From NCBI RefSeq assembly GCF_003790525.1, contig NZ_CP033635.1: a stretch of DNA of 64,000 nucleotides; one strand, 5' to 3'. Below, piece after piece: positions 2,946 to 4,193 of this stretch (position 1 is the first letter of the stretch; each line of letters opens with the position of its first letter). The translations under genes were made by a program, and so were the position numbers. The notes beneath the pieces were generated by a model, which saw nothing but the letters and a program-made list of their open reading frames with translations, was not told the origin of the DNA and did not search any database. The stretch comes from Escherichia coli. Lineage in GTDB: Bacteria; Pseudomonadota; Gammaproteobacteria; Enterobacterales; Enterobacteriaceae.

Positions 2946-4193
2946 TTAATTATCATCAAAATTAACATCCAATGCAGATAGTTGATTAATTTCATTTTGA
3001 TATTTAGCCTGGCGATTTTGAAGCCTTTTTTCAACTTTATCTTCGATTTCCTTAAAGTGGTCATATTTATTTTGAGAACGGTCAACTTCGTTATCGACTA
3101 AAGTAGAAATTATTTCTTTTACATTATCGCGTCTAAATTTTGCATCGTCCACTTGAAAATTATATCTTATTGCTCGACCTAAACGTTTAAAAACTTCGTT
3201 TGGCTCTCTCAGTCTTTCCCCGTTGAGCTCGTTTACAACCTGATGATCGGAACCTGTTGCAAATGATTCTGCCATGATAGCTTTACTGCTTTCAAACCAC
3301 GCTGAAGCATTCCTGGCTTTTTCACTACAATATTGGGTGAGACTATCACCATTAATACGAATTCCTCTTTGAATGTGGTAGTCGTCCTGATCATAGTAAC
3401 CGAGAGATAAGTAATCATTTCCGTTTTTATTTTTAATTACAATAGCGAGAGAATCGCCTTTTTTATCTTTACCGTACCAGGTAAATAAGTCCGTTGGTTC
3501 GCTTTTCCCATTCTCATCAAATTCCGTTATCGTATGTCTGAGTTTTTGTGATATCTTATCGAAGATAAAACCAGGATCTCCATCATATATTTCTTTTAAT
3601 GCGCTGAAGATCATTTCCTTCTTATTGATATCATGAGTATTCTCTACTACATTTTCATGGATGATGGTTTGGCCGACTTTTTTGTTTTCATCGTTCGTAG
3701 GTGATTTTATTGGTTCTTGATTATAGATACCACTAGTAATATCGGCTGTATCATTGGAGTCAATAGCACCCTCATTACCACTAACAACGATACTACCATC
3801 AGTAAAGTCAGCATTATTTATATCATCATGAGTCTTCTCAACTATGTTGTCATTAATGATAGCACGGACGAGTTCTTTGTCTTTATAGCTCGCAAGTAAT
3901 TTTATTGTTTCTTGGTTATCGATACCAATAGTAATATAGTCTGTATCATTGGAGCCAATATCAATATAAGTAACTGAGGAATTATTAATATTAAATCTAT
4001 CAGGATTGTCGTTTCCTCGTATGGCGTTTTTTATAAGCGCAAGTAGATGTTTAACACAGGTGCTTATTCCTTGCTTACCATTAAAAAGGTTTTTGAGCTC
4101 TTGTACTAATATATTAACTTCATCATTGTTATTTTCATTGATGGATTCTGTGTAAGCTGCGCTGGTATTGTTGATTGAAATAGATGGTAGCAT
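2946..4193 (-). CDS. yfdF: Uncharacterized protein YfdF-like; AT-rich, internally repeated
   Basis: 415-aa ORF between mlaA and fadL (the yfdF position in K-12); Asn/Asp/Ile-rich; contains two tandem ~195-bp repeat units. Confidence 0.7.
   Translation of the reverse strand: MLPSISINNTSAAYTESINENNNDEVNILVQELKNLFNGKQGISTCVKHLLALIKNAIRGNDNPDRFNINNSSVTYIDIGSNDTDYITIGIDNQETIKLLASYKDKELVRAIINDNIVEKTHDDINNADFTDGSIVVSGNEGAIDSNDTADITSGIYNQEPIKSPTNDENKKVGQTIIHENVVENTHDINKKEMIFSALKEIYDGDPGFIFDKISQKLRHTITEFDENGKSEPTDLFTWYGKDKKGDSLAIVIKNKNGNDYLSLGYYDQDDYHIQRGIRINGDSLTQYCSEKARNASAWFESSKAIMAESFATGSDHQVVNELNGERLREPNEVFKRLGRAIRYNFQVDDAKFRRDNVKEIISTLVDNEVDRSQNKYDHFKEIEDKVEKRLQNRQAKYQNEINQLSALDVNFDDN

Follow-up and report, generated by a model that had tools for sequence, protein, structure and literature searches.

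Two repeat units or one: an in-frame tandem duplication in Escherichia coli icaT (yfdF) and its probable loss from the K-12 form

Why should the product of one small gene be 415 amino acids long in one E. coli genome and 352 in K-12, and which of the two lengths came first? The question is raised by an open reading frame at positions 2946 to 4193, on the minus strand, of the window, by which is meant the whole 64,000-nucleotide stretch of E. coli DNA analyzed here. Inside this frame a segment of about 65 codons occurs twice, head to tail, where K-12 has it once. Either the longer allele has gained a unit or the shorter one has lost it, and the answer bears on which form of the protein ought to be considered the original.

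The gene and its repeat

The 415-residue frame can be identified as yfdF, a gene since renamed icaT, from the order of the locus and from sequence identity. In the window, the order is argW (636 to 710), yfdC, mlaA (2012 to 2767), the frame in question, fadL (4560 to 5906), yfcZ, and fadI, and the gene order at the K-12 yfdF locus matches it. Outside the indel described below, the frame is 92 to 93% identical at the nucleotide level to RefSeq yfdF/icaT coding sequences and to K-12-type alleles. The short alleles found at the fadL-mlaA position go by “protein YfdF” or “invasion chromosome antigen IcaT” in RefSeq, while in E. coli strain 165, which shows 100% identity to the window across the 1,248-bp icaT query, the identical coding sequence is annotated “hypothetical protein.” At 34.3% GC, icaT is far more AT-rich than either mlaA (51.7%) or fadL (50.8%). 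A first-pass annotation made from the window sequence had named the gene yfdF and remarked on its AT-richness and horizontal look; the fadL-mlaA position, the annotated alleles, and these GC values bear it out.

What has been established about icaT? The gene is activated by MxiE/IpgC via a MxiE box, and the first 20 residues of the protein direct its export by the Shigella type III apparatus (Silue & Campbell-Valois 2022, PMC9241512). The same study found icaT in phylogroups A, B1, D, and E but not in B2, suggested that it may be a fossil gene, and took the “T” of the name from a low similarity to IS transposases. H-NS silencing and a functional MxiE box were also reported by Hall et al. (2022, PMC9769918), and the gene stays silent in E. 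coli until either MxiE/IpgC is provided or H-NS is taken away (PMC9241512, PMC9769918). In the window, a MxiE-box-like sequence, TGAGCGTTTTTTGATAG, lies at 4250 to 4266 on the minus strand and ends 56 nt before the ATG. It matches 13 of the 17 positions of the consensus GTATCGTTTTTTTANAG (quoted in PMC9769918), retaining G6 and T10, and as a sequence it is present unchanged in all six alleles compared (window, K-12, O157, O78, HKUOPY1, and Ec-2977); the activity of the icaT box is known from the published work (PMC9241512, PMC9769918). Across the same six alleles, the 130 nt upstream of the ATG (4194 to 4323, the MxiE-like box included) are at least 95% identical, with nearly all differences within the first 5 nt, while alleles differ by up to 18% in the 3′ part of the coding region, so that the promoter is better conserved than the protein. 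Scans for promoters and terminators gave nothing specific to the repeat, and an Rfam scan of the window returned argW only.

The protein itself has few relatives to lean on. For IcaT, no transposase or other domain was found in Pfam at E ≤ 0.001, NCBIfam yielded 0 families, and a PDB profile search gave nothing below E = 0.49. The faint similarity to IS transposases was thus not reproduced, and IcaT as a transposase was rejected. Nor is there support for the variable surface or phage-related function floated in the first-pass annotation, as IcaT is a Shigella type III substrate (PMC9241512) and tblastn found no match in 50,697 phage records. The one strong PHROG match (phrog_29678, 8e-144, function unknown) is most likely the same chromosomal gene caught in a prophage-region call, and five “plasmid” matches, to records of 0.37 to 4.9 Mb, are most likely chromosomes or fragments filed as plasmids. 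All told, icaT looks like an AT-rich orphan gene, horizontally acquired and restricted to E. coli and Shigella; two Salmonella records are mentioned in PMC9241512.

Turning to the repeat, a search of the frame finds a direct repeat of 139 nt, 79% identical, at 3630 to 3768 and 3825 to 3963. The gene is read from the minus strand, and copy 1, the promoter-proximal copy, is the one at 3825 to 3963 (gene nt 231 to 369, aa 78 to 123); copy 2 is at 3630 to 3768 (gene nt 426 to 564, aa 143 to 188). Both were delimited by the repeat search and by comparison of alleles. From start to start the copies are 195 nt apart, or 65 codons, and the repeat is therefore in frame. The 195-nt period includes a diverged spacer between the cores (3769 to 3824, minus strand, gene nt 370 to 425), where the offset-195 trace is at background; in alignments this spacer is absent from K-12-type alleles and rich in indels among long ones. 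When the gene is compared with itself, offset 195 is the best, with 53 of 60 nt matching, against no more than 33 of 60 at any other offset and a mean of 33 and maximum of 36 in 100 shuffles. Tandem Repeats Finder reported no array, since there are only two copies, 79% alike, with a diverged 56-nt spacer between them. The two copies lie head to tail, their period is divisible by three, and their match exceeds chance, which makes this a tandem duplication in frame, with a period of about 195 bp, just as the first-pass annotation had read it; the two strings that it quoted were located at about 3717 to 3759 and 3912 to 3954. That the similarity arose by chance in low-complexity AT-rich DNA, or is an artifact of assembly, is scarcely credible, for although 34% GC and a richness in Asn, Asp, and Ile codons raise background self-similarity and no array was reported, the best self-match stands far above every shuffle, the two-unit structure recurs in about 1,112 independent complete genomes, and the gap in K-12 is exactly one period.

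Shifted by 65 residues against itself, the protein has 24 identities in 65 positions, which cluster in a 46-aa core that reads DIGSNDTDYITIGIDNQETIKLLASYKDKELVRAIINDNIVEKTHD in copy 1 (aa 78 to 123) and AIDSNDTADITSGIYNQEPIKSPTNDENKKVGQTIIHENVVENTHD in copy 2 (aa 143 to 188). Identity between the cores is thus 79% in DNA and about 50% in protein. Both units are acidic (pI 4.1 and 4.7), unit 2 being the less hydrophobic. The module sits between the N-terminal secretion signal (aa 1 to 20) and the C-terminal part of the protein. Does the long form still carry the signal? The window allele agrees with K-12 throughout residues 1 to 13 and at 19 of the first 20, the exception being residue 15 (Thr in the window allele, Pro in K-12). 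An AlphaFold2 model (18-sequence alignment; mean pLDDT 39, pTM 0.24) is too poor for structural conclusions; within it, copy 1 has pLDDT of about 53 to 56, drawn as three strands and a helix, and copy 2 about 25.

How common is each form? Megablast places icaT in 4,294 of the 5,426 complete E. coli genomes searched, in every case on the chromosome. Unit number was surveyed with a 70-nt probe that runs from the last part of copy 1 into the spacer, and the counts are classes of probe coverage rather than of extracted sequences. The probe was matched in full in 1,112 genomes (long form) and over its first 39 nt only in about 3,000 (short form), the sampled members of which were all annotated yfdF; about 170 genomes that carry icaT gave no match to it. 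Long alleles among the sampled sequences come from O157:H7, O55:H7, O78, Shigella boydii, and others.

Gain or loss of a unit

K-12 yfdF is 1059 bp long and encodes 352 aa, 63 fewer than the window allele. The difference is the sum of one 65-codon unit missing and 2 codons added by a 6-nt indel near the 3′ end, so the first-pass statement that K-12 YfdF is about 60 residues shorter proves right, the shortfall being one unit. Exactly where the two forms part was examined in an alignment of the window allele with those of K-12 (EPI300), Ec-2977 (short and annotated icaT), O157:H7, O78, and HKUOPY1. The 352-aa alleles lack a 195-nt period corresponding to 3639 to 3833 (minus strand), with boundaries that can slide by up to 9 nt. 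That slack is provided by a 9-nt block of identity, ACTCATGAT, which ends copy 1 (3825 to 3833, minus strand) on one side of the joint and copy 2 (3630 to 3638, minus strand) on the other. The window allele has it at gene nt 361 and again at 556, and short alleles have it a single time. The sequence at the close of copy 1 in long alleles is ...GTTGAGAAG ACTCATGAT GAT..., and at the close of copy 2 it is ...GTAGAGAAT ACTCATGAT ATC.... In short alleles it is ...GTTGAGAAG ACTCATGAT ATC..., and K-12 and Ec-2977 accordingly run from ...GTTGAGAAG straight into ACTCATGATATCAATAAC. A deletion joint would then fall inside ACTCATGAT.

What gives the direction of the change? Repeat units were extracted from six alleles and compared pairwise. 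Copy 1 is 93.5 to 99.3% identical to copy 1 of other alleles and copy 2 is 88 to 95% identical to copy 2 of other alleles, while copy 1 and copy 2 share only 77.5 to 82.6%. The single unit of the short alleles is 94 to 96% identical to copy 1 and falls inside copy-1 diversity, O157 copy 1, for instance, being more like the K-12 unit than like copy 1 of the window. The parts of the gene flanking the repeat give a similar picture, with short alleles nested within the diversity of long ones. Some long and short alleles are nearly the same sequence: outside the indel, P0102 (418 aa, long) and the short Ec-2977 allele disagree at 2 of 352 aligned residues. P0049 (417 aa, long) differs from K-12 at 10 of 352, clustered in a window-type repeat region, which marks it as a mosaic. 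Since the copies group by counterpart and long and short alleles pair so closely, the duplication is taken to be old and the short form to be a later deletion. Judged by these sequences, the two-unit form is the ancestral one among the E. coli alleles sampled, and the K-12 form presumably a deletion of one unit.

The opposite reading, that of the first-pass annotation, holds that the gene first had a single unit, as in K-12, and that 195 bp of it were recently duplicated in the window lineage. It has in its favor that K-12 and most genomes carry the single-unit form (about 3,000 against 1,112) and that the long form has been described as an “internal addition” (PMC9241512). A fresh duplication would leave identical copies, whereas those in the window are 79% identical with dN/dS of about 1 between them. 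The copy 2 sequences of O157, O78, and HKUOPY1, moreover, are 88 to 92% identical to that of the window, so copy 2 predates the split of these alleles, and the unit of the short alleles nests within copy-1 diversity. With copies 77 to 83% alike and each 88 to 99% identical to its counterparts, a recent gain of an extra unit in the window allele is very improbable.

How firmly is the tree rooted? Among 1.84 billion representative proteins, no homologues below 53% identity were found, the matches being the same gene and fragments of it. With no outgroup, the rooting rests on clock-like reasoning and on nesting, which leaves some formal room for a later duplication followed by fast evolution of copy 2. 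The alleles are also mosaic, and recombination could blur the nesting argument. Whether the unit was lost once or several times is a related issue. There are two short haplotypes, with 5 differences in the 360 nt from the start codon through the joint, and these are 11% apart at the 3′ end. The simplest account of such likeness at one end and divergence at the other is one deletion followed by recombination, recurrent deletion being the alternative.

By what route might a unit be lost? Deletion between short direct repeats, by slippage or illegitimate recombination, is a general mechanism in E. coli. The icaT case is similar in that exactly one period is gone and the joint lies in a 9-nt block within longer, imperfect homology. 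The event is known from the sequence of its joint, from which slippage is inferred; RecA-dependent exchange between the 139-nt cores (79% identical) would look the same.

How does this sit with the IcaT already under study? The secreted protein has an expected mass of 44 kDa with its 3xFLAG tag (PMC9241512), which fits the short form, and S. flexneri M90T IcaT is thus apparently short. The M90T and K-12 proteins are like that of the window in gene, fadL-mlaA position, MxiE-like box, and the AT-rich composition of an H-NS target. The difference is that the experimentally studied IcaT proteins are one-unit forms, averaging about 352 aa, while the window allele has two units and 415 aa. Length variation has been noted before, as an “internal addition” in strains of phylogroups D and E and a 71-aa C-terminal truncation in phylogroup E (PMC9241512); the O157 allele has both features, being long but truncated by 71 aa at the C terminus to a coding sequence of 343 aa. 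The text of that paper does not describe the addition as tandem (“tandem” occurs 0 times and “repeat” in one methods sentence), and it makes no statement that the short form is derived. The gene and its length polymorphism are therefore already in the literature; what is new is the recognition of the “addition” as a tandem copy and, from the sequence comparisons above, of the short reference form as derived.

Drift or selection on the second unit

If the second unit is old, has it been kept for a purpose? Long alleles encode 397 to 426 aa, and in the part of the alignment examined (about aa 60 to 260), it is in the spacer and copy 2 that they differ in length. One contributor is a (GATATT)n tract in copy 2, coding for (Asp-Ile)n, with 0 to 4 units among long alleles (O157, O78, and HKUOPY1, that is, L002 to L004, and P0016 to P0088); it is absent from the window allele. 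Others in the spacer and copy 2 are a GIDDRSDIG/NEGA replacement and a 24-aa partial deletion. Among the best 120 of 418 database matches, no three-unit allele was seen and no product exceeds 426 aa. By the Nei-Gojobori method, dN/dS is 1.09 between copy 1 and copy 2 and 0.3 to 1.3 between alleles, two higher values occurring at very low dS. These ratios are far above expectation for a conserved housekeeping gene of E. coli. In a positive-selection scan, yfdF appeared with P = 0.041 (PMC3882776). Taken together, dN/dS and the scan fit either weak constraint, as in the fossil-gene view, or some diversifying selection.

The account that we favor, at a probability of roughly 0.8, is that a module of about 65 codons was duplicated in frame long ago, with the two-unit form of the window ancestral, the 352-aa form of K-12 and the Shigella reference a loss of one period, and the resulting polymorphism near neutral. 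The module would have been duplicated in tandem inside icaT before the known alleles diverged. The 352-aa form would have arisen later by the precise loss of one 195-nt period, through a crossover or replication slip within the ACTCATGAT block that ends both copies; an event placed there removes a whole period and so would keep the reading frame. Copy 2 and the spacer may since have drifted almost neutrally, becoming the indel hot spot of the gene through (GATATT)n slippage and smaller deletions, with the second unit perhaps serving as a dispensable acidic spacer. Presence or absence of the unit would then be a nearly neutral, largely lineage-specific polymorphism in a weakly constrained gene rather than a functional switch. 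Neutrality is here inferred from dN/dS and the indel variability. The neutral-looking divergence of copy 2, the small in-frame indels, the silence of the gene, and the secretion of an M90T protein of short-form mass all point to a polymorphism close to neutral.

Could selection instead be keeping both forms? In EspF and TccP/EspFU, type III effectors of enteropathogenic and enterohemorrhagic E. coli, the N-terminal signal precedes tandem modules, in frame, that vary in number by strain, and their repeats are several near-identical, proline-rich units with known roles in host binding. IcaT shares the plan of an N-terminal signal with strain-variable in-frame modules. It differs in having two units only, with 79% DNA and about 50% core protein identity and no known partner, and it has no sequence similarity to those proteins, searches of Pfam, NCBIfam, and the PDB having returned nothing. 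The IcaT module might set reach, stability, or host-target binding, with one- and two-unit proteins both maintained by selection and the deletion having arisen repeatedly or been moved about by recombination. Such a role, which we consider decidedly unlikely, would mean that icaT, rather than being a fossil gene, encodes a small modular effector.

A more dynamic proposal is that unit number and (GATATT)n changes are selected to vary a secreted effector, making the repeat a contingency or antigenic-variation module. The repeat region is indeed the indel hot spot of the gene, dN/dS is high and the published selection signal (PMC3882776) points the same way, and both length classes occur on near-identical haplotypes, as they might after recurrent events or after recombination that moved the indel. 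Against this, the large unit was seen in two states only, 1 or 2, and the 9 nt of uninterrupted identity at the joint offer little substrate for switching at a high rate. Every change preserves the frame, so nothing is turned on or off; as mentioned, the gene is silent in E. coli under ordinary circumstances, and most carriers lack a pINV-type secretion system with which to export the protein. Length is also constant in the related strains sampled (1245 bp in three O157 or O157-like cattle isolates, 1059 bp in K-12 derivatives), quite unlike a fast switch and out of keeping with the “variable” function first suggested. In short, there is no array, the two units are diverged, the variants are all in frame, and sampled relatives agree in length, which is not the profile of a contingency locus. 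An adaptive copy-number switch is accordingly rated unlikely.

For the near-neutral loss of an old unit, then, what are the practical consequences? The reference IcaT/YfdF proteins of K-12 and, apparently, M90T would be deletion derivatives that lack one repeat module, and about a quarter of icaT-carrying E. coli (the sampled O157:H7-type allele included), along with some S. boydii, would retain the older two-unit form. The long form is worth including in tests of IcaT function and secretion and in any reconstruction of the origin of this orphan gene. The weak constraint on icaT, as published, is supported by the dN/dS values of 0.3 to 1.3. Beyond such housekeeping the importance is small, since the length difference is probably of little functional weight.

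The island and its surroundings

Not all E. coli carry icaT at this position. A 2.5-kb query across the locus identified about 1,150 genomes with a clean empty site, and comparison with two of these (L007 and L008) delimits an AT-rich island of 1.74 kb and 35% GC, at 2809 to 4547, that contains icaT and extends from the fadL stop codon to the mlaA terminator. In both, the equivalent of window position 4547/4550 is joined directly to 2808 with an 8-nt filler, and no direct repeats flanking the island were evident in the comparison. The terminator of mlaA, a GC-rich hairpin with a 14-pair stem at 2777 to 2808, lies just outside the island according to the terminator scan and the empty sites. In the two empty-site genomes it follows the fadL stop codon by about 20 nt, and the terminator is thereby shared with fadL. 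One empty-site strain, 181.1, has flanks 99.1% identical to those of the window, so presence or absence of the island varies even among close backgrounds. IS1 has also been active here: in several strains (L006, H29, H90, and H101) it is inserted in or beside icaT or has deleted most of it, and in L006 (strain 2017.06.04CC), only the last 140 nt of icaT are left.

Two further observations concern the neighborhood. In strain 165, the region past argW and just beyond the left end of the window (23997 to 35398 of L009) encodes UpaE, a phase-variable autotransporter adhesin, together with the invertases IpuA and IpuB; in K-12, the CPS-53 prophage occupies this site. Within the window, at 17893 to 19894 on the minus strand, between smrB and the yfc fimbrial operon, there is a Septu-type anti-phage pair, in which a 452-aa AAA ATPase matches PtuA (E = 1.8e-168) and an overlapping 219-aa protein matches PtuB (E = 5e-95). 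RefSeq annotates these two genes only as “AAA family ATPase” and “hypothetical protein.”
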